A stretch of DNA of 25,262 bases, taken from the IMG/VR virus record IMGVR_UViG_3300044454_000244, positions 1 to 25,262 of that record, one strand, 5' to 3'. Source of the DNA: a virus. Lineage: Duplodnaviria > Caudoviricetes. The first letter of the stretch is position 1; each line of letters starts with the position of its first letter. A model generated the notes under the pieces. That model did no database searches. It saw only the letters and a program-made list of their open reading frames with translations, and was not told the DNA's origin. Below are positions 5,894 to 25,262 of the stretch, piece by piece. The position numbers and the translations under genes were made by a program.

Positions 5894-6169
5894 CTACTGG
5901 CGCTCCAGTATGAGGCGCTTTTCGAGTTCGTCGGGCGCCACCGGCTCGATCACGCGCACGACGTAGGTGGTCGCTCCACGCAGGACCGTGGCGCCGACCG
6001 CGATTGACGCCGCATCGGATGTCCGCACCCGCAGCGAGGGCGCTGTGCCCTGCACGGCCAGCGCATCGGCATAGCCGCCGTCGAAGATCGCAGTCAAAGG
6101 GGCCGCGGCGATCGTGACCGGTTCGCCGAAGGTGGCGTAGATCAGCGCGAGCGAGGGCGCGAAGTCCAT
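5894..6169 (-). CDS. Head closure / head-tail joining protein (gpFII-like), 91 aa
   Basis: Start ATG 6169 overlaps the upstream stop (TGATG). FGEPVT...TAIFD...YVVRVIEP beta-barrel pattern. Confidence 0.78.
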   Translation of the reverse strand: MDFAPSLALIYATFGEPVTIAAAPLTAIFDGGYADALAVQGTAPSLRVRTSDAASIAVGATVLRGATTYVVRVIEPVAPDELEKRLILERQ

Positions 6170-7716
6170 CAGGCGGCCCTCTTCGTGAGCAGCCCCTGCG
6201 ACGTCAGGTAATCGACGATCAGATCGGCGATCGGTTCCGGCCGGGCCATTGCCTGGCACGCACTCGCATGCGTGACCGTGTCGCGCGCGCAGAACGCGAA
6301 GTCCGCCCCGTGCACGCGATGACAGGGATGGCAGGCGAGCTGCGCCGGCTCGATGCTCGCGGTGTTGATCCAGTCTCGCGTGAGGTTTTCCACGCTGCTG
6401 TGGCTCAGCGTCACCACCTTGAGCATCGGCTCGAACGCCACGGCGTTGGCCACCACGCTTTCGGTGGCGACCACCGCGTCGGCCTGGAGCGCGTAGGCGA
6501 GCGCAATGCGCAGCGGCCATTGCATGCCGACGACGTGGCCGTACTTCTCGACCCCCTCGATCGAGTCGTCGCGGATATCGCCTATCGCGACGGTGTGCAC
6601 GCCGTGCTCGGCCAGCAGTTCCATCAGCCGCTGCGTATGCGGCCAATACTTGACGGGGCCGCTGCCGGACGGATTGACGACGACCACGGGCCCGTCGAGC
6701 ACCTTGCGCAGTTCCGCTGCCGCCTGCACCTCGACGGCGCTCGGGTAGAACTTCTGGCGCGGCGGCTTGCCATCGAGGCCGGCCCATTCGTGCACGGTGT
6801 CGAGGTAGTTGCGGTTCATCAGCCGGTGGCGCAGCGCATGCGGCAGGAAGAACCGGACCTCGTTCGGATGCGGCAGCAGGTTGCCCTCGACCGAGCCGAT
6901 GAGGTTGGCAAAGCGGTCGAACTTCGGCGCCAGATAGGCATAGAAGCGCAGCAGCTCGTCATCCGTCAGTGTGCGGTCGCGCAGCGTGATGATGCGGTCG
7001 ATGTTCGGATCGTGGCGCAGCACTTCGGCCCCGCCGGCGACGGTGTAGATGGTGACGTGGTGGCCCTCGTCCTTCAGGTGGGCGCAGACGCTGCTGGCCC
7101 AGAGCGCATCCCCGTGGCCACCGAGGCGGACCACGCCGGCGCATTTGTCCGGACGTTCGAACACTTGCACCTTCTGGCTGTGGCCCGCGAGTTCCTTGCG
7201 GAATACCAGCAGGAAGCTGTATTCGCGGTCGGCGTCGCGCACCTGGTTCTCGAGCAGCGTCCAGTCGGGCGCCACGTCGCACATCATGGCGATGATGTCG
7301 TGCGGCGCGAAGTCGTGCTTGTAGTCGGGGTTGGCGCCCGGCTCGCCCCGGCGGGGATACAGGTCCCGGTGCGGCAGGTAAAGCGCGAGGTAGCCGCCGA
7401 TGCGGACCAGGCGCCACCATTCCGCGAGCGCCGCATGGGCGTCGGCGATGTGCTCGAGCGTGTGGCTGCTGAACACGCAGTCGAACGCATCCGAACCAAA
7501 GATTGGCAGGCGGGCAGCGTCGGCCACCACCATGTCGGGCTTCATCGGGATGCCGAAGAGCGCGGTCTCGCGCATCGAGTCGACGCCGATGGCATGCGGC
7601 CAGAGCTTGTTGGGACCGCAGCCAATATCCAACAAGCTGCCCATCGTGTACGGCAGGACGTCGAAGCGCACCTTGGCAGCTTCGTTGCCCTGCGGGTCTT
7701 CCGCTCTCCAGACCAT
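6169..7716 (-). CDS. Class I SAM methyltransferase fused to a GT9 (heptosyltransferase-like) glycosyltransferase, 515 aa
   Basis: N-domain: LLDIGCG, FDCVFSSHTLEH, EWWRLVRIGGYL. C-domain: VVRLGGHGDALW, LRHDPNIDRII, NPSGSGPVKYWP, ADAVVATES, ACHPCH...C...C. Confidence 0.88.
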   Translation of the reverse strand: MVWRAEDPQGNEAAKVRFDVLPYTMGSLLDIGCGPNKLWPHAIGVDSMRETALFGIPMKPDMVVADAARLPIFGSDAFDCVFSSHTLEHIADAHAALAEWWRLVRIGGYLALYLPHRDLYPRRGEPGANPDYKHDFAPHDIIAMMCDVAPDWTLLENQVRDADREYSFLLVFRKELAGHSQKVQVFERPDKCAGVVRLGGHGDALWASSVCAHLKDEGHHVTIYTVAGGAEVLRHDPNIDRIITLRDRTLTDDELLRFYAYLAPKFDRFANLIGSVEGNLLPHPNEVRFFLPHALRHRLMNRNYLDTVHEWAGLDGKPPRQKFYPSAVEVQAAAELRKVLDGPVVVVNPSGSGPVKYWPHTQRLMELLAEHGVHTVAIGDIRDDSIEGVEKYGHVVGMQWPLRIALAYALQADAVVATESVVANAVAFEPMLKVVTLSHSSVENLTRDWINTASIEPAQLACHPCHRVHGADFAFCARDTVTHASACQAMARPEPIADLIVDYLTSQGLLTKRAA

Positions 7717-7743
7717 GAATGCTCCGAAATTCCCTCGTCGAGG

Positions 7744-7797
7744 TTGCGCGGCAGGCCGGGAGGGGCCGGCTTTTCGGTGGCGACCCTAGCCGCGCAA
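7744..7797 (-). ncRNA. Candidate small three-way-junction RNA element in the 5' leader of the MTase-GT9 gene
   Basis: Minus strand: UUGCGCGGC-UAG-GGU(CGCC)ACC-GAAAA-GCCGG(CCCCUC)CCGGC-CU-GCCGCGCAA, i.e. a perfect 9-bp closing stem with two internal hairpins. Confidence 0.5.
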
Positions 7798-14644: not shown

Positions 14645-15757
14645 CTAGATGGCGGTCAGTGTGGCTATCGACGGACCGCCGCGAATGCTCGTCGTCGCCG
14701 TGTTGTCGCTGTAGTTGTGCACGAAGCCGAACGCCTTGGTACCAACCGATCCAGCGCCAGGAAGGTCAGCATATCCACCAGCGACGACCGCAGTGCCCTG
14801 GGAGAGCAGCCCGTAGGTTGGGCTCGATCCGGACATCACGATGACATGCACCGAAGTGCCGTTCGGCGCGGTGGTGGGCACCCTCCACACCTGGGAGAAA
14901 GCCGTCAAGATGGCCGAGCCGACCGCCGCTCCAATGGCTGCGCCAGTCAGCGGCTTGTGCACGCTGAGGGCTCCGGAAGCAACCGCTCGCGCGACGGCGG
15001 CGGCGGCCATATTGTTGGTGATGGCGAGAGATCCTGCTCCGACCGCTGCACCGATCGCCCCCCCAGCTAGATTGATATTTCCGCTCGCAGCCTCCTTGAA
15101 TCCTGCGGCCGCGATAACCCACTGAGGCGCGCCACCAGCCGACAGACTCCAGCTCATCGTAACCGCGCCGGCCGACGCTGCGGCCTCGGTGGAGCACACC
15201 AGGCGACGATTCCCGGAGGCGGGAGTGATGACTCGGTTGCTGCGTTCAGTCTGTCCGGAGCCGACAGTGCACGTCAGGCTCGAGTCACGGCAATAAGCTC
15301 CGTCGACGACCCAGGAGTTGGGCGCCCCCGTCGTGACGTTCACGGTGATCGGGCCGGCCGGGCTGTAGTAGTCAGATGCGGCGGTGGCGGTTCCGTCGAG
15401 CGGGCTGGTCTGGTCGACTCCGTTAAGGCTGATGGCATCGCCGCAGACGTGGTAATCGCACGAACCGCCCCATGTGATGGCGAGTGTATTGGCGCCCGTG
15501 GCTGGAGCGATCAGATACCACAGCGAGGAGCACATCCATAGATCGGCGGAGTCTTGCGTCGATAGTTCGGCCGCCTTAGTCAGCGAAATGCCGTTGTAGG
15601 TGACGCTGGAGACCAATGTTGGCGCCTGCGAGCTGGCGCGTGCGCTGGCCATCACCGCCAGGAGGCGCTGGGATCCAGCGCAGGTATGCGACCACGAGCG
15701 GGTGCTCTGGCTATCCGCCGCCGCCGATCCGCTGTATGCGTCGAAGGTGATCGCCAT
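14645..15757 (-). CDS. Putative fibre/adhesin protein: beta-sandwich N-region, three 20-aa repeats and a C-terminal domain, 370 aa
   Basis: SWSHT...RLLAV...SVTYNG...LWYLIAP pattern seen in phage surface proteins; repeats at about 14897-15076. Confidence 0.7.
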   Translation of the reverse strand: MAITFDAYSGSAAADSQSTRSWSHTCAGSQRLLAVMASARASSQAPTLVSSVTYNGISLTKAAELSTQDSADLWMCSSLWYLIAPATGANTLAITWGGSCDYHVCGDAISLNGVDQTSPLDGTATAASDYYSPAGPITVNVTTGAPNSWVVDGAYCRDSSLTCTVGSGQTERSNRVITPASGNRRLVCSTEAAASAGAVTMSWSLSAGGAPQWVIAAAGFKEAASGNINLAGGAIGAAVGAGSLAITNNMAAAAVARAVASGALSVHKPLTGAAIGAAVGSAILTAFSQVWRVPTTAPNGTSVHVIVMSGSSPTYGLLSQGTAVVAGGYADLPGAGSVGTKAFGFVHNYSDNTATTSIRGGPSIATLTAI

Positions 15758-18604
15758 CTAGCGCACCCGGTAGGCCCAAAGAGAGTTGTTTCCAGGTAGC
15801 GGCGGATATTGCCCGCTCGAACTGGTGCGCGGCGATGTCGTGATTCCCATCAACACCTCTCCGCTATCGGGCAGAGCGACCCAGCTCGACGCGGAAAAGT
15901 TCTGCGCCGGAGCATCCGTGCAAAGCGAAAACCTGCGGGTGTCCTGATCGAATACTGCGACCTTGGTCCCGGTGAAGTTACCTGGGCCGCCGGTATTGAT
16001 GACGCCATCGTATGAACAGATCAGCACGACCTTGCGATCGACGGCGACCACCCCGCAGTGCTCTTGCCATTTCGCGGTGGCGAAGATGCCATTGTCTCCC
16101 GCCTCTTCCCACTCGCCGAGCGGCCAATGGCCGAGTGTGACGCCGTCGTCCAGCAGCCATTGTCCCGGCGACAGCGAGAAGGGTAGGTCGTAGATCTCGA
16201 AATTCGCCGCGGTCTCGGGAATATTTCCCCCGTTAGCCACGGCAAGCGCATTCTTCACATTGATGCGGACCATCACACTGCGTCGCTTGCCGCTCACGGA
16301 TTCGCGGACGCGGCCAATGAAGTAACACCAATCGTCAACGTTGGCAACGTAAGAGGTCGAGCAGTCCCACAGGCTGTAGACCAGCGTCGTTGGAAACTTG
16401 CGGTACTCGTAGGTAACGCCCGCGGGCTTGAAGATGACGATGGCTTGCGTGTCGGAACAGGCGCCGACGATCACATCGTTCGCGACGTTGCGGCCCCATG
16501 AACCGAGTCGCTCATTGGCGTAAACGCTCTCCAGCCGCCCTCCGTTGTAATTCCACCCGCCTGCGACCGACTTTGGCGCGACAAATGCGTTCGAGGACTC
16601 GAGCGTCCACGTTCCGGCGCCGCCGTTGGCGCTGGGCGTCCACGACCAGGTCCCCGACGGTTCATTGGGCGCCGGGCCATAGAGAGTGCCGGTGGCCCAT
16701 TCGTCCTGCCCGTAGAGGTTGTACCCACGGACGATGCTGGCGATCGCCCAAAACTTGCCCCGGACCTCGTCCCATACGAGAGATTGCTGGCAGTTGGTGG
16801 GTGGCCGAGTTTCGCGCGATCCGGACAGGTTGCGTGGCAGATACGGGTGCTCAAGTCGCCATGTTGCATCGCCAGCCGCATAGGGATCGATGGAATACAT
16901 GTCGTTTCGATACGACGAGTCCATCGTGTACGACTGCGCCCCGCTCGGCGCGTTGGTGGTGAAGCTGGCGCCCGAGTTCACCTGGGCGTCGGTGCCTGCG
17001 CCGCCGTCGTAGCTGAACGGCGAGTTGTAGCAGGAAAAGTCACCGCCCCACGTGTAGATGCGCTTCTTCACGGGGTGGTAGGCCCAAAAAACATGCTTCC
17101 CGGCGTTGTAGTCCGGCTGATCTGCCGAATATGTGTCGATGAATGGGTTGTTCGAGGCCGTCATCGGAATTTGCCGCCAGCGGTTGCCCGCCGACGGCGT
17201 CTCGAAGCCGATTCGGTGCCATCTCACTGAGGCCGCAGCGGACGGCGCGGTTTCCGGCCACCCCCCGCGGAAGTAGATTCCGTCGAGGTCGGGGTGGTAG
17301 TCGCCGTAAACGCTGATGTGGGGAATGAAGCCGGCCGGAGTGATGTTGACCCAGGCGGTCGGACTAGCCAGGTCATAGCGCTGCACGCTCGACCCGACGA
17401 ACACGAGGCAATTGCGCCGCGAGTCGTACTTCATCAGCTTGTAGTAGTACGGCTGGTCGCCGCTGTCGCTCAGCGTTCCGGGCATCTGGGTCGCGGTGGT
17501 GGGGTCGCGAACGTCGAGGCGCCACAGCTGATTGCCCGGATAGGCGAGCATGTAAACGTATGGGCCCACCGCGGCGATACAGTTGCGCAACTGATGCTGC
17601 CCCCCAGGCATCGAGGCGGGCCATGACACCTCAGTAATGCTGAACTTCTGCGGTCCGCCAGGCTTGCGCGCCATGATGAAGTGGCGCTTGTCCTGCTCCG
17701 CATTCCCGCTGCCAGAGGCTTCGATGCCCGCCCTCAAATATCCCACGTCCAACGCCGGACACCATATGGCCGCGGCGTTGTAATACCAGCCGGACGAACC
17801 GCCAAACCAGTACTGAACGGAGGAATTGCCGTCAACGTATTCGTTCCACACCGCCGTGCCACTGGCGATCGGCGCCCGGTTGCTATAAAGCCAGCCGGCC
17901 TCTGGCCTTGTGCCGGCGTCGTAACCAACAGTCAGGTCATAGACGCAGATACCACCATGGCCAAATTGGACGAAGGCATTCTCGGACGGGATGTAAATCT
18001 GAGGCCGATTGTCTTGCTGCGAGTAGTAGTACGAAATGTTGTCGTCGGATGCGGCAGTCTGCCAGTCCATCGTGGTGGGAAAGCGCTCCCACCCGATGAA
18101 AGCTGCGCGCGTCGTACCAGTGGCATCGTTCTTCGGCACCGGATAGGGATTGAACCCACGCACGTGATTGTCGGTCTCGGTGTGGTCCCCGGTGTTCGCG
18201 CCGATAAACATGCCCTCATTCGTTAGCAAGGCAGCCCCATAGTGAAGAACACTAGGGTTGCTTGGAGTCGATCCGACTCCGCCCGCATATGAATCGACGT
18301 CGGTTCCGATATTCGTAACGAACGACGTAGCCGACGAAGAGACCGCCAACGAGGCCCCACTATAGGCACCGGCGATCGCAGCGCCGGTTAGGCGCAACCC
18401 GCGCAGCAATGCCGCTGTCGCCTGCGCGCTCGCCACCGAACCACCGGCAAGGTTCAATCCTTTCAGCAGCGCCGCCGCCCCGACGGCACGCCCGGTGGCG
18501 TCTCCGGCGAGCTGGTTCAGCCCGGCGACGCCGACGTTTCCATCGATGGCGAGAATGCTGGAGAGACGCAGGCGGACGGGCCCGCGTAACTTGAATTCAG
18601 GCAT
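15758..18604 (-). CDS. Large putative receptor-binding protein: three 20-aa repeats then probable beta-propeller regions, 948 aa
   Basis: Repeats at about 18338-18517; blade-like motifs LWRLD, MKYDSRRNCLVFVG, YHPVKKRIYTWGG, LVWDEVRGKFW and VFDQDTRRF; W/Y/G-rich. Confidence 0.75.
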   Translation of the reverse strand: MPEFKLRGPVRLRLSSILAIDGNVGVAGLNQLAGDATGRAVGAAALLKGLNLAGGSVASAQATAALLRGLRLTGAAIAGAYSGASLAVSSSATSFVTNIGTDVDSYAGGVGSTPSNPSVLHYGAALLTNEGMFIGANTGDHTETDNHVRGFNPYPVPKNDATGTTRAAFIGWERFPTTMDWQTAASDDNISYYYSQQDNRPQIYIPSENAFVQFGHGGICVYDLTVGYDAGTRPEAGWLYSNRAPIASGTAVWNEYVDGNSSVQYWFGGSSGWYYNAAAIWCPALDVGYLRAGIEASGSGNAEQDKRHFIMARKPGGPQKFSITEVSWPASMPGGQHQLRNCIAAVGPYVYMLAYPGNQLWRLDVRDPTTATQMPGTLSDSGDQPYYYKLMKYDSRRNCLVFVGSSVQRYDLASPTAWVNITPAGFIPHISVYGDYHPDLDGIYFRGGWPETAPSAAASVRWHRIGFETPSAGNRWRQIPMTASNNPFIDTYSADQPDYNAGKHVFWAYHPVKKRIYTWGGDFSCYNSPFSYDGGAGTDAQVNSGASFTTNAPSGAQSYTMDSSYRNDMYSIDPYAAGDATWRLEHPYLPRNLSGSRETRPPTNCQQSLVWDEVRGKFWAIASIVRGYNLYGQDEWATGTLYGPAPNEPSGTWSWTPSANGGAGTWTLESSNAFVAPKSVAGGWNYNGGRLESVYANERLGSWGRNVANDVIVGACSDTQAIVIFKPAGVTYEYRKFPTTLVYSLWDCSTSYVANVDDWCYFIGRVRESVSGKRRSVMVRINVKNALAVANGGNIPETAANFEIYDLPFSLSPGQWLLDDGVTLGHWPLGEWEEAGDNGIFATAKWQEHCGVVAVDRKVVLICSYDGVINTGGPGNFTGTKVAVFDQDTRRFSLCTDAPAQNFSASSWVALPDSGEVLMGITTSPRTSSSGQYPPLPGNNSLWAYRVR

Positions 18605-18613
18605 CTCGAGGTG

Positions 18614-19018
18614 CTACACCATCACGATCGCGGCGGACAGTCCGGGGCAGGTAACTGAATCAGCCCCCGGCGGAATCACGTTGTCAGTCACAATCAGATC
18701 GGCGCCGCTGCCTGCGAGTCCGACGCTCCCGGCAATGAGTACAACATTGTTCCGGTCTCGCCATTGAAGCTTGGTGAACGTGCCAGCCGTTATGGTGCTG
18801 TCCGTGGCCACTGCGTTGGACTGAGCCTCTGCAACGCCACCACCTGGCGCGGTGGGAGTAGCGAAAGCAGGATTGGAAAAATTGAGCTGAGCGAGTTCGG
18901 CATCTGCGGCCGTGAGCAGCCGGCAGTCGCCGGTCGCATCAGCACTGCCGACATTCAGCTCCGACAGCGCACCGGCGAGAGCCGCGATGCGAACGCGGTC
19001 ATGGATGGTCAGGGACAT
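18614..19018 (-). CDS. Small beta-rich phage structural protein, 134 aa
   Basis: Start moved to ATG 19018 (GGAG SD). LAQLNFSNPAF...GTFT...GSVG..GSGADL pattern common in phage structural accessory genes. Confidence 0.75.
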   Translation of the reverse strand: MSLTIHDRVRIAALAGALSELNVGSADATGDCRLLTAADAELAQLNFSNPAFATPTAPGGGVAEAQSNAVATDSTITAGTFTKLQWRDRNNVVLIAGSVGLAGSGADLIVTDNVIPPGADSVTCPGLSAAIVMV

Positions 19019-19178
19019 GCGGAGGCTCCGGGTCTGGACGCTCAGCGATCGGGATCTCGAGCGGCACTGAGCCGCCGACGATCTCGACCTCCTTGATAAC
19101 GGAACCATCGGCCCCGCGAAACTGCAGGAGGCCGCGGATCGAAAACCGCGCCTCCAGGGCGGGAGAACCGAGGCTCAT
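18999..19178 (-). CDS. Hypothetical protein, 59 aa
   Basis: ATG 5 nt after the upstream stop; fills the gap; GLLQFRGADGSVIKEVEI beta-hairpin pattern. Confidence 0.6.
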   Translation of the reverse strand: MSLGSPALEARFSIRGLLQFRGADGSVIKEVEIVGGSVPLEIPIAERPDPEPPHVPDHP

Positions 19179-19183
19179 CTGCG

Positions 19184-19708
19184 CTACTGCAGCGTAATCG
19201 TCAGCGCACCGGCGGCGAACTGCACCGTGTTGCCGCTGGCAACCGTCTGTGAGGCGGTGAGCGCCGAGCAGAACAGCAAATTGCCTCCAGAGCTGGCATC
19301 GAGCAGGCCCCAATGCGTGACGGTGCCCGACCACGTGACGGTGCCCCAGCTGATGGCGTTATTGTTGCTGGTCTGGCCCCCGGTTCCGCTCGAGGCCGTG
19401 GTGCTGCCAGCGCTCTGCGTGCCGGCCCAATTCGCGAGGGAGCTGGCCACAGATTGGCGCGCGTAGTTACCACCAGAGGCCTCGGTGCCGCCGCCGGAAT
19501 CCGAACACGCCGCGGTGTAGAGCGCAACGTACGTGGTCGCCGGCGGCGTGAACGACTGGCCGCGCAGAAGCCAGTCGATGATCTTGTTCTCGAGGTAATC
19601 CGAAAACGCCTGGGCGTTCGCGGGTGCGGGCGCCAACGTGGCGCCGACCATCAGCGCCAGCAGGCAGGCGGCGTAGAGCCCCTTCATGCCTTGGAAAAGC
19701 TTCTTCAT
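19184..19708 (-). CDS. Small phage fibre-type structural protein with an apparent N-terminal signal peptide, 174 aa
   Basis: Start ATG 19708 with AGGAG SD. Mature part SDYLENKIIDW...YVALYTA...GGGTE.SGG.YAR...GTVTHWGLLDASSGGNLL is a recognisable phage motif set. Confidence 0.8.
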   Translation of the reverse strand: MKKLFQGMKGLYAACLLALMVGATLAPAPANAQAFSDYLENKIIDWLLRGQSFTPPATTYVALYTAACSDSGGGTEASGGNYARQSVASSLANWAGTQSAGSTTASSGTGGQTSNNNAISWGTVTWSGTVTHWGLLDASSGGNLLFCSALTASQTVASGNTVQFAAGALTITLQ

Positions 19709-19751
19709 GCGATTGCTCCTGGGTGTGTGCCGCTGGCGCGGCGGTGAAAAC

Positions 19752-21755
19752 TCAATTTCTCCAGCGCTGGGCAAAGCCCGGCCCCCGCAACTTCCGCCGC
19801 CGGTGCGGCGGAGCGGGTTCCGCTTGCTTCAGCGCAATGAATTCGTCTTGCGATGCGCGACCCTCGGCGGCGCCATCGAACATTTCCTTCTGCGGAGCAA
19901 GACCAAAAACACGTTCACGATCTCGCCATACGATTTCGGCATGGCGGCCGCTCATCAGGTACTGGAACGCGGCGTAGCCGTAGACCAGCAGGTCCCATGC
20001 CTCGTTGCGGGCCGCGCTCTTGACCCACCAGAGCGCCTTGTGGCCGGTGCGGTCACGCCGCCATTCGCGCCTTTCGGCCACCACCTGGTCGAAGTAGTCG
20101 GCCTCGTATCCGAGCGGGAAGTGCAAGAAACCGGGCCCGGCTGCCTGCAGGCCGCGTAAGCGGCTGTCGATCAGGTTCTTGATGCCCTGCGTGCCGACGT
20201 AGCGCAGCGTGACGCCTCCCGGCACGGGCTTGCCGCGCCATGTGAATTCGACGCTGCGTGGCTTGCCGAGGTGCGCGGCGTTGTACTGCGGCGCGCCCTG
20301 GATGGCGAACCAGTGTCGTCCGCGCAGCGCGGCGTCACGGCAAAAGGCCTTGACGTCCTCCGAATGATGACCGCCGATGTCGATCGCGCATGCATCGACA
20401 CGAATGAACTGGCCACTTTCGTGCTTGATAGGCGCCTCGAGCAGCTCCCGCAGTTTGACCCAGGTTTCCGGCGACGCTGGAGAACCGTAGATCTCGCCGT
20501 GGTGCAGGCCCCAGCTTTCCTCGCCGCGACCGTAGGCGCGGAGTTCGACAGCGAGACGGTTGTCCTGCACGTCGACCGCACCGACGACGATGAGACCGCG
20601 TGCAGGGCAGACCATGAGGGGATAGTTCTCTGCCCTTCCCCTCAGCCGTTCCGCATTGAATGAGCCCTTGAGCGTTTCCGCCCATACGTCGCCAAGCTCG
20701 TTGTTGGTGAAGGCCTTGAGGGACTCTTCATCACCCTGCGCGGCGATCCAGTCTGCAGCAAGTTGCGTCCACGGGCGCCATCCGATCGGGGCGCACATCG
20801 ATGGCAGATGCCAGCTCGCGACGCCTAGCTCGCCCTGCGCGGTGGCACGCCAGTGAGCGACGCCGCGGCGCGCGCATTCGTCCTCGCTCCAGGACTCATC
20901 CCGCACATAGTTGCGTGTCTTCCAGCCGTGCTCCGGATTCCCTGCGCCGCAGCCGATGCAGTGGTAGAGCGCAGTTTCCGGCTTCGCGTCCTCCCACTTC
21001 AGCTGCTTCCAGTCGAGGGGCTGGGCGTGGCCGCAATCGGGGCAGCAGAGATGCCACAGGCGCTGATCCCCGCGGCGGAACTGCTTGTCGATCGCGCTGC
21101 GGTCCTTGATCGTCGGCGTTCCGTCGCCGTAGATCTTCGCCTTGCGTCCGAAGTTGCTGGTGCGCTTTTTCGCCAAGGTAATCGGATCGCCCTGGTCGCC
21201 GATGTCCAGCGCGTATTCGTCGGGCTCTTCGAACTTGACGTAGCGAATTGTCGATGACTTGAGCCCGCCGACCCGATTGGCGCTCACCAGGCGCATCACC
21301 CCGCCGGGGTACTTCTTCCTCAGCTTGGTGTTGTTGCTGCCACTTCGGTCGGCATCACGGACGCGACGGCGTAACTCGCGCGTGCTTTTGCGCATCTCCT
21401 CGAATCGCGTGAGCTCCCATTGTTTCGCGTCCTCCAGAGTCGCGAAGACCGCGAGCATCGAACCAGCGGCCGCGCAGATCGCGTGCCCGATGAAGTTCTC
21501 GCCGATCGCAGAGCCACCAACCTGGTGCCCCTTCTTGACCCATCCCTCCCGGTAGGGAGAACCGGGCGACATCGTGTTCTGGATGTCGATGCAGTATGGG
21601 GTGCGCAGGTTGCGCCATGGGCCAGGCTCTGGGGTATCGACGGGCAGCACGCGATTGCGCACTGCCCACTCGGAGATCGTGACCCTGTCGTCCGGCCGTA
21701 TCGCTGCGGAAAGCGACCGCAGGTACTTGGCGGCCGCTCCCGCGCTTGCGTTCAT
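19752..21755 (-). CDS. terL: Terminase large subunit, lambda gpA family, 667 aa
   Basis: Start moved to ATG 21755 (ATGA overlap with the TerS stop). ISEWA, PGPW..RTPY, GDPI.LA.KRT.NF, TPTI, GDQR, CPDCG/CIGCG, VDVQDNR and NEAWD motifs. Confidence 0.96.
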   Translation of the reverse strand: MNASAGAAAKYLRSLSAAIRPDDRVTISEWAVRNRVLPVDTPEPGPWRNLRTPYCIDIQNTMSPGSPYREGWVKKGHQVGGSAIGENFIGHAICAAAGSMLAVFATLEDAKQWELTRFEEMRKSTRELRRRVRDADRSGSNNTKLRKKYPGGVMRLVSANRVGGLKSSTIRYVKFEEPDEYALDIGDQGDPITLAKKRTSNFGRKAKIYGDGTPTIKDRSAIDKQFRRGDQRLWHLCCPDCGHAQPLDWKQLKWEDAKPETALYHCIGCGAGNPEHGWKTRNYVRDESWSEDECARRGVAHWRATAQGELGVASWHLPSMCAPIGWRPWTQLAADWIAAQGDEESLKAFTNNELGDVWAETLKGSFNAERLRGRAENYPLMVCPARGLIVVGAVDVQDNRLAVELRAYGRGEESWGLHHGEIYGSPASPETWVKLRELLEAPIKHESGQFIRVDACAIDIGGHHSEDVKAFCRDAALRGRHWFAIQGAPQYNAAHLGKPRSVEFTWRGKPVPGGVTLRYVGTQGIKNLIDSRLRGLQAAGPGFLHFPLGYEADYFDQVVAERREWRRDRTGHKALWWVKSAARNEAWDLLVYGYAAFQYLMSGRHAEIVWRDRERVFGLAPQKEMFDGAAEGRASQDEFIALKQAEPAPPHRRRKLRGPGFAQRWRN

Positions 21756-22471: not shown

Positions 22472-23245
22472 TCATCGGACGTCGCGAGCAGCCAGGCGCG
22501 CGGCACTGGCGTCGTAGGCGCGGTCGAACTCGCGCTGCAGATGCTCGGCCTGGACGCGGCGTCCGATGTCGAACAACCGAAGTCGAGTCCGGTAGGCGGG
22601 CTTGCCCACTACGATCTTGAGCACCATCTCAGTCGTCCACCCTCCGCTGCTCCGCGTGCGGCGATAGATGCCACGCGGCAGCCCGCCGCCCGGACGCGGA
22701 ACGAAATACGTTCCTCGCTTTGCGACCGTGCGCCGGCTGCGCGCGCTGTCAGTCTTGTTGGACGAGTAACCCTGCCCTGCGCTGCCCGATGCTTTCAGCT
22801 GCGAAAGTATGGTGCGCACGATGCCGACGGGGAGGTTGCCATTGGCATCGAGGGGCATCGCTTTTGCAGGTACCGTGAACTCGTTCGAGCGCAGCGCACC
22901 TACCCTCAGCAATGCTGTCTCGTAGGCCTTACGGCCGCGCGCTACCCCAAAGACCTCGGGGTAGAGATAGTGGCTATCCCTCGTCTGGGGCCCTCCAGGT
23001 CTATCCTTGAGCCAGACGGAGGCAGCGAGCCGATCCTTGTCTGCCGGCTGCAGATAGGTGGAGTTCAGTGCCCACCGCGTCGGTCTGTCGAATACTCTGC
23101 CGATTTCCTTGACCACTTCGCCCTGGGCGATCTTCGCGGTGCGAGTCAGCGCCGTCGCAATCGTGCTGCGGTAGCGTCGGTCGCTGAAGCCGTCCAGCAA
23201 CGATCGCAACCCGCGCAGATCGACGTCTGTCTTGATCGTCAGCAT
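22472..23245 (-). CDS. Basic phage protein, probable tail-completion (gpZ-like), 257 aa
   Basis: ALTRTA...VFDRPTRWALNS motif; Arg-rich. No gene lies between the gpFII-like and gpU-like genes, where gpZ normally sits. Confidence 0.6.
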   Translation of the reverse strand: MLTIKTDVDLRGLRSLLDGFSDRRYRSTIATALTRTAKIAQGEVVKEIGRVFDRPTRWALNSTYLQPADKDRLAASVWLKDRPGGPQTRDSHYLYPEVFGVARGRKAYETALLRVGALRSNEFTVPAKAMPLDANGNLPVGIVRTILSQLKASGSAGQGYSSNKTDSARSRRTVAKRGTYFVPRPGGGLPRGIYRRTRSSGGWTTEMVLKIVVGKPAYRTRLRLFDIGRRVQAEHLQREFDRAYDASAARLAARDVR

Positions 23246-23246
23246 C

Positions 23247-23278
23247 GGAAAGAACCGCCCCGCAGGCGGGCGGGGCGG
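23247..23278 (-). terminator. tR'-like intrinsic terminator in the late leader
   Basis: CCGCCCCGC-CCGCCT-GCGGGGCGG followed by TTCTTT, just before the first late gene and downstream of the Q-like gene. Confidence 0.7.
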
Positions 23279-23355
23279 CAGGCGGAGGAGAGTCGACGGC
23301 TTCGCAGCGTTGCGGGTGCAGCTCTGCCAAGCCTGCTAGATTCAAACACAGAATC

Positions 23356-23377
23356 GGAAAGTCTCGAAATTCTTTCC
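23356..23377. promoter_or_regulatory. Inverted repeat in the putative late promoter region
   Basis: GGAAAG-N10-CTTTCC in an AT-richer patch immediately after the Q-like stop. No clear -10/-35 could be assigned. Confidence 0.4.
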
Positions 23378-23378
23378 A

Positions 23379-23768
23379 CTATCTCGGCACGGGTGCCAAC
23401 GAGCTCCGTGCGGCTTGAGCCTTGGCGTCTCTCGCCTGGTGCCACTGATTCAGCCTCAAGTCAGCGTGGCATAGACGGCTGTGCAAGGTCCGCTCGCTGA
23501 TGTGCAATCGGCAGGCGATCCCCGCCCTGCTGTTTCCGATCCCATCGAGGTAGCTGGCGCGTACGGCCGCTTTCAGCTGCGGCGGGAGTGCGGCGACGGC
23601 CTGGTCCGTGAGGATGGCCTCGTCGTTGATTTCCGGGGTCAGCGTGCCCCACTGCACGGCGCAGTCGACGCGCTCGAGGTAGATCGATGGCCTCGATCCG
23701 CCGGGCGCCGTGAAGACCCATAGCGCCCAGCGATTGAGGCGCTCATGCCAGTAGGAACTGCGCTGCAT
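23379..23768 (-). CDS. Antiterminator Q-like / late transcription regulator, 129 aa
   Basis: Start ATG 23768 (TGATG overlap). RLNRWALW, TDQAVAALP...Y and C-terminal HTH IACRLHISERTLHSRL; position before the late operon. Confidence 0.78.
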   Translation of the reverse strand: MQRSSYWHERLNRWALWVFTAPGGSRPSIYLERVDCAVQWGTLTPEINDEAILTDQAVAALPPQLKAAVRASYLDGIGNSRAGIACRLHISERTLHSRLCHADLRLNQWHQARDAKAQAARSSLAPVPR

Positions 23769-24016
23769 CAGTCGCCCACCCGTTGCCAGCGATCCGCGCG
23801 GATGACCTCGATCGGCTCGGGAGGCATTGGAGGTGGAGTTCCGATCTGCTGACCGCCCTCCTCTGCATAGAACCGGTGTGGCCATCCACGCAGCCCGGCT
23901 CGAATCGAGGCGTTGATCCCGTCCTCCCCGAACGCCTGCCGAAGGTCATCCACAAAAGCGGCCGTGAGGGGCATGCGATCGCGCAAATTGATTCTCGACT
24001 CGTTCTTTTCGGTCAT
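23768..24016 (-). CDS. Phage hypothetical protein, 82 aa
   Basis: MP.TAAFVDDLR.AFG...FYA.EGG..IGT; coupled to the Q-like gene. Confidence 0.75.
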   Translation of the reverse strand: MTEKNESRINLRDRMPLTAAFVDDLRQAFGEDGINASIRAGLRGWPHRFYAEEGGQQIGTPPPMPPEPIEVIRADRWQRVGD

Positions 24017-24026
24017 CTTTAAGTCC

Positions 24027-24276
24027 CGTCGCCAAGGGCCCCCCCTCCCCCCGTGAAAAACTCACGCGAGAAGGATCGTCGCCGTTAATCGCTCCACCAT
24101 GAACGCCTGCGCGTTCCCCCGGCCGTGGAGTCAAGGCCAGCCGCTCGAACGTTTGTGCTTGCGCACGGGAATTGCACCCCGTCGAGTACCGATTCACAGC
24201 CTCGGTTGGACTGGTCTTTTCTGCCGGGCGGGCGATGCAACCCCACGGACTCTGAGCGCGGCGGGCTCGGCTCGCG
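24027..24276 (-). ncRNA. Candidate highly structured ~250-nt RNA ending in a G6AG7 tract
   Basis: About twelve nested helices found by hand, many needing G-U pairs that form only on the minus strand; GCAA loops. It fills almost the whole gap between the TAA at 24277 and the ATG at 24016. Confidence 0.7.
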
Positions 24277-24441
24277 TTAGGTCATGGGTGCCTTCCAGTT
24301 GAGTACGGGGGCCACGATCGGCTTCCGCTTGAGGGAGGCCATCGATCTCGCCTTGGCCTTGCCGCCGCTGGAGTGGTGGCGGTGGAGGACCACCGACTGG
24401 CCGGGGCCCTTCCTCCCCTTGAAGTTCACCGGAGCAGTCAT
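24277..24441 (-). CDS. Small basic protein, 54 aa
   Basis: ATG 24441 overlaps the upstream stop (ATGA): MTAPVNFKGRKGPG...GGKAKARSMASLKRKP...WKAPMT. Confidence 0.55.
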   Translation of the reverse strand: MTAPVNFKGRKGPGQSVVLHRHHSSGGKAKARSMASLKRKPIVAPVLNWKAPMT

Positions 24442-24899
24442 GCGTGGAACTCGGACCCGAGCACAGCCCGAGCCCACAGGAGAATGTGCTGCGGCACGTA
24501 GTGGCCAAAACGGTGGCGATCGCGCTGCCTCATGGCCAGGGTGCGCGGAGAAATTGGTGGGCGATTGCCCATGCGTTCGAACAGTTCGACCAGCTGGCGC
24601 GCTATGTCATCCGGCATCGGTACGCCCCCTGCGGGGTCGGCCTCGCGCGTCTCGGCCTGCTGTGCGCGTCGCCGTGCGGCATACGCATCGCTGGCGCGCG
24701 TGACAATTTCGTCGATCGTCGGCATGCCCTTGGCCGTTGCCATCCAGTGCTCGAAGGCGTCGACCACGACATCGATGGGCAGCGCCTTGCATTTGCGCAG
24801 CCAGACCTTGACCGCAAGCTCGCTCGGAGCCTTGCGTCCGAAGAAGCTCGCGCATTCGGTGAGCGCGCCCTCGAGCGCGCGGATGTCGTAGATATTCAT
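24438..24899 (-). CDS. Putative helicase loader/inhibitor-like replication protein (lambda P position), 153 aa
   Basis: VW...LP...VVDAF..W....GMPTIDEI pattern resembling phage loader N-domains; coupled to the upstream replication gene. Confidence 0.6.
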   Translation of the reverse strand: MNIYDIRALEGALTECASFFGRKAPSELAVKVWLRKCKALPIDVVVDAFEHWMATAKGMPTIDEIVTRASDAYAARRRAQQAETREADPAGGVPMPDDIARQLVELFERMGNRPPISPRTLAMRQRDRHRFGHYVPQHILLWARAVLGSEFHA

Positions 24900-25216
24900 G
24901 CGAATGCCTCGGCGAGGCGGGCGAGGCGTGCTTCGGCATCCGCGCCAAAGCCGGGGAGCTCGTCCTCCCAGCGCCGACCGTTGAGCCAGGTCGAGGCATG
25001 CGGGATGCGCTCTGGATCACGCTCCGCCTGCCGCCAATAATTCACGTGAGCCTCGATGGCGGCGAGTGCCAGGGCGCGTTCCGGTGGCGGCAACTTGCGC
25101 CAGGCCTTGATGGCAGCCATGCGCGCAACCCGCCGCGGATAGAGCTTCCAGAAGGATTCGAACTCCGCTGGCGCCGGTTGGCGCACGCCAGGGAACAAGC
25201 GAACCTGAGCCGTCAC
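24896..25216 (-). CDS. Short replication protein resembling the C-terminal domain of phage initiators, 106 aa
   Basis: FESFWKLYPRRV.R..A.KAW.KL and IPHASTWLNGRRWEDE motifs; GTG start with AGGAGG SD and a GTGA overlap. Confidence 0.75.
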   Translation of the reverse strand: MTAQVRLFPGVRQPAPAEFESFWKLYPRRVARMAAIKAWRKLPPPERALALAAIEAHVNYWRQAERDPERIPHASTWLNGRRWEDELPGFGADAEARLARLAEAFA

Positions 25217-25262
25217 GCCACCTCCTGAAGTCGCATTGCGTCGATTCGATGGACTACGGGAT
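25213..25262 (-). CDS. 3' end of an upstream gene (partial)
   Basis: Open frame ...PVVHRIDAMRLQEVA* whose TGA overlaps the next GTG; only 50 nt are visible. Confidence 0.4.
   Translation of the reverse strand, partial: PVVHRIDAMRLQEVA

Follow-up and report, generated by a model that had tools for sequence, protein, structure and literature searches.

At one end of a 25,262-base viral contig (the window, by which we mean the whole stretch of DNA that was analysed), a folded element predicted to be an RNA lies beside a gene encoding only the C-terminal domain of a replication initiator. Two protein families with no relation to each other both have elements of this kind next to their headless initiators, and none next to the full-length initiators that we sampled from them, which suggests that the RNA likely marks and opens the origin instead of the missing head. 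Our preferred reading of this arrangement, drawn from sequence comparisons and held at a probability of roughly 55%, is that a transcribed RNA would open the origin as an R-loop and that the headless domain would hand this origin over to a helicase loader.

The virus record is linear, has an estimated completeness of 68% (CheckV) and carries lambda-like terminase, portal, capsid and tail genes on its minus strand. The module of interest sits at the contig end, ahead of a Q-like gene, and comprises the following features together with their neighbours, all on the minus strand.

25213..25260, minus strand: 3′ end of an upstream gene (...PVVHRIDAMRLQEVA, then the stop), cut by the contig end; its stop overlaps the initiator GTG
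24896..25216, minus strand: headless initiator, 106 aa, a stand-alone FWxxYP...TWLNxxRWEDE C-terminal domain, assigned from phrog_270, strain variants and homologues
24438..24899, minus strand: predicted G39P-like helicase loader/adaptor, 153 aa, coupled to the initiator by ATGA
24277..24441, minus strand: basic ORF, 54 aa from the ATG at 24441, ATGA-coupled, with 11 K/R and no D/E
24021..24272, minus strand: class A structured element, predicted RNA of about 250 nt with approximate ends, defined by profile and covariation
24167..24180, minus strand: T-loop-like hairpin GG-UGCAAnU-CC, whose outer pair covaries and whose inner letters are fixed by the search pattern
24166-24155, minus strand: GCAA-capped hairpin, next after the T-loop-like hairpin
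24143-24116, minus strand: P3 hairpin, part of the predicted pseudoknot
24092..24143, minus strand: predicted pseudoknot of the P3 loop CUCCAC (24130-24125) with GUGGAG (24097-24092), across P4 (24116-24101)
24083-24077 and 24033-24027, minus strand: two direct repeats GGCGACG, flanking a pyrimidine strand and the G-tract
24052-24039, minus strand: G6AG7 tract, between the direct repeats
24016-23768, minus strand: 82-aa orphan ORF, between the Q-like gene and the class A element
23379..23885, minus strand: Q-like gene (sigma-70 region 4; PF08281, E=1.4e-6), context only and outside the module

The 106-aa ORF (25216-24896) bears FWKLYP...HASTWLNGRRWEDE, and its match to phrog_270 (replication initiation protein) covers only positions 175-252 of 383 (E=6e-18). 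The first-pass annotation had described this ORF as the C-terminal part of an initiator and nothing more, with the caveat that a longer protein might be encoded, as the reading frame stays open for 15 further codons up to the window edge. We consider it a whole gene and not a fragment because the TGA of the other frame (ending ...DAMRLQEVA) overlaps the initiator GTG, because independent proteins of 106, 106 and 109 aa (87, 79 and 60% identity) share the common start MTAQV, and because four of the five strain variants in the gene fall at third codon positions. The stop overlap and the start of the homologues mark the GTG as the start codon, which answers the caveat, and the ORF is a predicted complete, stand-alone initiator C-terminal domain, as had been proposed. 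The strong Shine-Dalgarno sequence ascribed to it is present as AGGAGG at 25226-25221, but at a spacing of only 4 nt from the GTG, which is short; the database start call (P0001) is a TTG six codons later. The AF2 model of the 106-aa protein is all-helical with a pLDDT of 72.6, and an Atlas search returned unnamed viral clusters, with Phg_2220_C as a lead at 0.90. No N-terminal DNA-binding domain is present in the window gene together with the FWxxYP domain. The reported lack of iterons and of an AT-rich tract also stood up: no iteron array was found, any 9-mer occurring at most twice in the window gene, and every 100-nt segment between 23900 and 25249 is at least 58% GC. In the wider sample, at least three repeat copies were seen in 25 of 44 linkers of long initiators and in 11 of 47 short genes.

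Coupled to the initiator is a 153-aa gene whose family profile (A5) matches PDB 1NO1, the N-terminal domain of SPP1 G39P, at E=6.8e-8, and 12 of the 24 family members match the helicase loader phrog_2289 (best E=9e-10). The gene resembles the SPP1 G39P loader and is a predicted loader itself, in agreement with the coupled loader-like gene proposed initially. In another genome, a headless phrog_678 domain and a loader-like protein share one open frame (G008:C1:15032-16003, minus strand), with a match to a further element class, E, 630 nt upstream (L472) and a class A element elsewhere in the same genome. The basic ORF that follows the loader gene has a GC3 of 0.89 and is probably coding. It had been counted as a fourth part of the module, an assignment that we do not retain: the peptide is a singleton without homologues among 5.8 billion proteins, a tblastn search with its 66-aa reading gave no match in 462 loci, and we regard it as a predicted passenger outside the conserved module.

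A profile made from the window together with other loci matches the window element at E=1.5e-13. Neither this element nor 20 other class A members have a match in Rfam, RF02932 included, whose gathering cut-off is not reached in the window. Folded alone, positions 24017-24290 do no better than shuffles (z=0.26), and z ranged from -2.1 to 1.7 across 19 members of the class A family, so that folding energy was dropped as evidence; with lone folding and Rfam both uninformative, the reality of the element rests on covariation among homologues. Look-alikes of class A were first seen beside headless homologues and were then collected by a DNA-pattern scan blind to proteins. A first, stricter pattern had given zero matches; the scan yielded 104 viral loci in 54 clusters, and in genome contigs 58 pattern matches, of which only 16 scored as class A. 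By blastn against GenBank phages, two class A members had no match, and the window region matched only in short pieces outside the element. Among 52 aligned class A sequences, 92.9% of the cells pair and the covariation score exceeds that of 500 out of 500 shuffles and of all slid controls, the invariant letters, which are set by the search pattern, carrying no weight. The structured RNA of the first-pass annotation is thus confirmed as a covarying family, the RNA being a predicted one.

Several parts of the structure could be followed across the family. The outer pair of the hairpin at 24167..24180, which we label a T-loop on its presumed likeness to those of tRNA, riboswitches and RNase P, is CG in 22, GC in 20, AU in 7 and GU in 1 of the 52 sequences. 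The pseudoknot pairing reaches at least 6 bp in 51 of 54 sequences, as against 6.7% of cross pairs, and a direct repeat of at least 6 nt occurs in 50 of 54, as against 20% of cross pairs, typically at a spacing of 44-55 nt. The shared repeat lacks a GGTGR consensus in 29 of 49 sequences; neither a nearby complement of the repeats (4/49 versus 10.5%) nor further copies of them are enriched in class A members. At 10-20 nt past the G-tract, A+T rises 24 points over background, a patch that may merely be the translation start of the next gene. GNRA loops make up 47 of 168 tetraloops on the sense strand and 2 of 177 on the antisense strand, the terminal helix swaps mainly between C-G and U-G, and in each of the five element classes described below the sense strand has more GGG than CCC runs. 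T-loops, GNRA loops and frequent G-U pairs are RNA-specific features, and we favour, on these signatures, a predicted transcript on the strand of the gene. Class A is likely an RNA family absent from Rfam. In two loci only (L303 and L341), hairpin P4 contains TTATCCACA, which we take to be the DnaA-box consensus.

Class A is one of five interchangeable structured elements, classes A-E, found in the same slot. Class B corresponds to the Rfam family RF02932 (Betaproteobacteria-1), and classes C, D and E were defined in this analysis; D and E mostly have the 5′ domain of class A joined to other 3′ domains. Class C was seen upstream of headless initiators at L005:101-322 and at about 958-1159 of L217, with no Rfam match. 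Classes D (L142, L127, L097, L107) and E (L089, L118, L207) lie 0.5-3.4 kb upstream of the headless gene, and Rfam gave no match for the class D loci L107, L142 and L145. In a complete phage genome (L542:1009-1198; GenBank MW202674.1), the gene for a 124-aa 'putative replication protein' is preceded, at a distance of 1.8 kb, by a class D element. Yet another locus, L104, carries a long imperfect hairpin about 330-240 nt upstream of its headless gene, with a complementary GAGTCGA segment and no Rfam match; it resembles c4/CI-type antisense immunity RNAs.

The association with headless initiators was measured in 240 FWxxYP loci fetched by protein similarity, comprising 144 headless genes (an in-frame stop at most 60 codons from the FW motif), 88 full-length genes (at least 90 codons ahead of the motif) and 8 unclassed ones that were left out, so that the headless form is common. 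The heads of long initiators were detected in 0 of the 144 short loci and in 62 of the 88 controls. A structured element of any of the five classes was present in the fetched flanks of 106/144 headless and 0/88 full-length genes, or of 14/21 headless and 0/44 full-length clusters at 70% identity, in a comparison that favours headless loci in so far as the profiles of classes B-E were seeded from them, and in which many long-initiator controls come from other host groups. All 141 element hits in the FWxxYP loci lie upstream of the gene and on its strand; in the window and in L289, L406, L421, L436 and L455 the element lies downstream of the headless gene. The class A core pattern was absent from 50 whole records with a full-length gene (19 of them at least 90% complete), with positive controls recovered in 3/3 cases, and RF02932 was likewise absent from the same 50 records, in a search with no positive control among them. 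Headless loci in which no element was found number 38/144, or 12/74 when at least 2.5 kb of upstream sequence was available.

On a tree of poor resolution, most headless FWxxYP genes group together (6 changes), and these counts are therefore not independent. Because of this clustering, and because of the seeding of the profiles by headless loci, the test was repeated in phrog_678, a family whose profile shows no similarity to that of FWxxYP. An element accompanied 26/42 headless and 0/26 full-length phrog_678 genes, after four weak opposite-strand hits (E ~8e-4; L475, L510, L525 and L526) had been dropped from an initial count of 30; 16/42 headless loci were without one. Leaving out six seed records, the figures are 20/36 and 0/26 (p=9e-7). 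The 26 hits divide into 14 of class B, 7 of A, 4 of E and 1 of D, and 19 of them thus belong to classes B, D and E, whose profiles were built only from FWxxYP loci. RF02932 by itself adjoins headless genes in 58/144 FWxxYP and 14/42 phrog_678 loci. For a third initiator family we obtained three new loci, all full-length and all without an element.

Starting from the RNA, 45 distinct class A loci included 17 with a headless domain (from four PHROG families), 9 with a primase or helicase, 3 with a full-length head and 16 with none of these. The 23 whole class A records comprise 10 with a headless domain, 4 with a primase or helicase, 5 with a full-length initiator from another family and 4 in which our profiles detected no initiator. 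The five full-length initiators sit 2.5-8 kb away from the element, which indicates that the RNA does not exclude a conventional initiator; in those records class A may serve a second origin or another job. The co-occurrence suggested by the first-pass annotation is accordingly borne out in both families, but it is not strict.

These five records are also what would be expected if the element were a cis-regulatory RNA of early operons, either a leader or a put-like antiterminator, linked to headless genes by shared phage ancestry. Its frequent position behind cro/cII-like genes or ahead of recombination genes, and often near the start of the early operon, as is usual for leaders, fits this explanation as well. 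Against it stands that the dependence on headlessness recurs in both of the protein families, which are unrelated, and that the RNA classes are interchanged between them; the genes downstream of the element are also highly varied. The largest cluster (L248) comprises 15 loci whose long flanking ORFs, one of them terminase-like, are on the opposite strand, which leaves no gene for the element to lead. Moreover, put and nut sites occur as a pair, whereas a single class A copy was found in 22/23 records. We regard a purely regulatory role as improbable.

The slot of the gene cut by the contig end bears on a second explanation, which we also think improbable, in which the initiator is split: a separate small winged-helix protein would be the missing head and would have its binding sites in the two direct repeats, acting as minimal iterons, while the element would be a DNA origin with an accessory RNA. 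In the syntenic loci L406 and L436/L289/L421 this slot, immediately ahead of the headless gene, is taken by small winged-helix genes; in L455 it is taken by an HTH-like gene for which Pfam gave no match. A separate HTH gene upstream, named at first pass as a finding that would speak against the proposal, is thus present at the loci closest to the window, in which the corresponding gene is itself truncated. An exact scan of viral contigs for sequence beyond this edge yielded no match, and one further contig extends 278 letters past it. The repeats, moreover, co-vary without a nearby complement, as binding sites would. Similar small wHTH genes, though, also precede full-length initiators (L270, L045, L073, L062), and four wHTH seed profiles, one of them mis-framed and all of low sensitivity, detected such a gene in 0/68 headless loci flanked by 1.5 kb or more on both sides and in 2/65 long loci. 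Iterons would be expected to be longer and more numerous than two repeats of 6-9 nt at a spacing of about 48 nt, the repeats show no correspondence with the initiator family, and a split initiator would leave the pseudoknot, the T-loop and the GNRA loops unexplained.

It is still less probable that the structure works as single-stranded DNA, as a primosome-assembly-type signal bound by the headless domain, given that the T-loop, the GNRA enrichment and the frequent G-U pairs are features of RNA, that the orientation always follows the gene and that the duplex would still need another opener. Primase or helicase genes adjoining 9/45 class A loci would fit such a signal, and covariation does not distinguish single-stranded DNA from RNA (PMC5737381, available text). 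Least probable of all, to our mind, is a headless protein that no longer initiates and acts in fork restart, recombination-dependent replication or helicase hijacking, with an unrelated role for the RNA, since this would be compatible with a domain for which no solved structure related by sequence was found and whose model reached a best Z of 5.4 in the fold search, but would leave unexplained the presence of the element beside headless genes as against 0/88 and 0/26 full-length ones.

In the RNA-opened origin that we prefer, the neighbouring folded element would recognise and open the origin in place of the lost head and iterons. Early rightward transcription would produce the RNA, its T-loop and pseudoknot core would keep it folded, and the G-tract at its 3′ end would anchor an RNA-DNA hybrid, comparable to that of mitochondrial CSB II. 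The first direct repeat, which lies inside the RNA, could then pair anew with the template strand where the second repeat stands, immediately beyond the G-tract and beside the short AT-richer stretch. The C-terminal domain of lambda O contacts its loader; the headless domain would similarly bind the opened DNA or the RNA and recruit the loader, which would bring in a DnaB-type helicase of the host. RNA classes and protein families mix freely, for which reason the RNA is a more likely seat of origin specificity than any fixed pairing of RNA and protein. A bolder version, which we put forward tentatively and consider unlikely as a whole, is an RNA-guided origin in which re-pairing of the 6-9-nt first repeat at the identical second repeat past the G-tract would let the RNA alone set position and specificity, phages having repeatedly dropped the heads of at least four initiator families, kept the helicase-recruiting tails and swapped at least five RNA folds.

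Compared with known systems, the locus shares with the lambda O/P-type and SPP1 G38P/G39P modules (phrog_270, phrog_678, phrog_2289; PDB 1NO1) an initiator C-terminal domain, a coupled loader-like gene and a location with the immunity region on one side and a Q-like gene on the other. It differs from them in having no N-terminal head and no iterons within the gene, with a separate structured element in their place, and it is not of the lambda O type, as head and iterons are missing. RF02932 is found in the corresponding place next to headless initiators from the two families, but the class A element of the window has a different sequence and fold and does not match it. The split G-run on the RNA strand, G6AG7 in the window, presumably resembles the CSB II sequence, a likeness that we use as an analogy only. 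CSB II forms a hybrid G-quadruplex R-loop (PMC3488243), although the motif string itself was not found in the available part of that text; unlike CSB II, the G-tract of the window can also pair with the pyrimidine strand inside the RNA.

According to the available part of PMC7157519, the ColE1 RNA II primer and the origins of non-RepA mycobacteriophage prophages depend on a non-coding transcript instead of an iteron-binding initiator; these origins have no initiator gene and serve maintenance in the plasmid state, whereas the window keeps a headless initiator and a loader. The predicted RNA of the window, about 250 nt with a T-loop and a pseudoknot, also differs from ColE1 in that no antisense RNA I was identified. 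The locus is not of the ColE1 type, as initiator tail and loader are kept; its mode of action is most likely that of an RNA-based origin combined with a loader path of the lambda type. Structured motifs of 220-350 nt with a proposed role in replication are found on plasmids (ARRPOF, GEBRO and PAGEV; PMC5737381, available text); class A, by contrast, has no Rfam match, occurs in phages and not plasmids, and is paired with headless initiators. Our literature search returned no account of a pairing between structured elements and headless initiators, and class A may already stand as a candidate in the supplement of PMC5737381 or in PMC10690425.

Many uncultured Betaproteobacteria phages have no recognisable origin-binding protein, and a short structured RNA beside a headless initiator offers a testable answer. 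The analysis also suggests what the orphan Rfam motif Betaproteobacteria-1 may do, and it delimits several RNA families not yet catalogued. If the RNA does open the origin, the locus would stand midway between the protein-initiated replication of lambda and the RNA-primed replication of ColE1, and would make up a replicon of some 1.3 kb in which a change of a few bases might suffice to alter the specificity.

The loci closest in synteny are Betaproteobacteria genome or MAG contigs (L406, Burkholderiaceae; L421, Alcaligenaceae; L436, Pusillimonas; L455, Pseudomonadota), and homologues of the Q-like gene come after the class A element in L406, L289 and L436. No sigma-70-type promoter was found at 23200-25262 on either strand. 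In roughly half of the 23 whole records, a GC-skew minimum falls close to the element; these minima were rejected as evidence for an origin because the element adjoins a switch in transcription direction, which confounds the signal. One record (G022:C1) contains two non-identical class A matches, at about 1992 and 56404 on the plus strand. Elsewhere in the window, the terminase-portal interval (14645-19774, minus strand) holds a Gp80-like gene and unannotated ORFs of 164, 948, 370 and 167 aa, and an Rfam int-alpA RNA (7732-7796, minus strand, 53.9 bits) is placed within the head-tail region, flanked by the capsid gene and by a 515-aa ORF with a methyltransferase domain (6169-7716).
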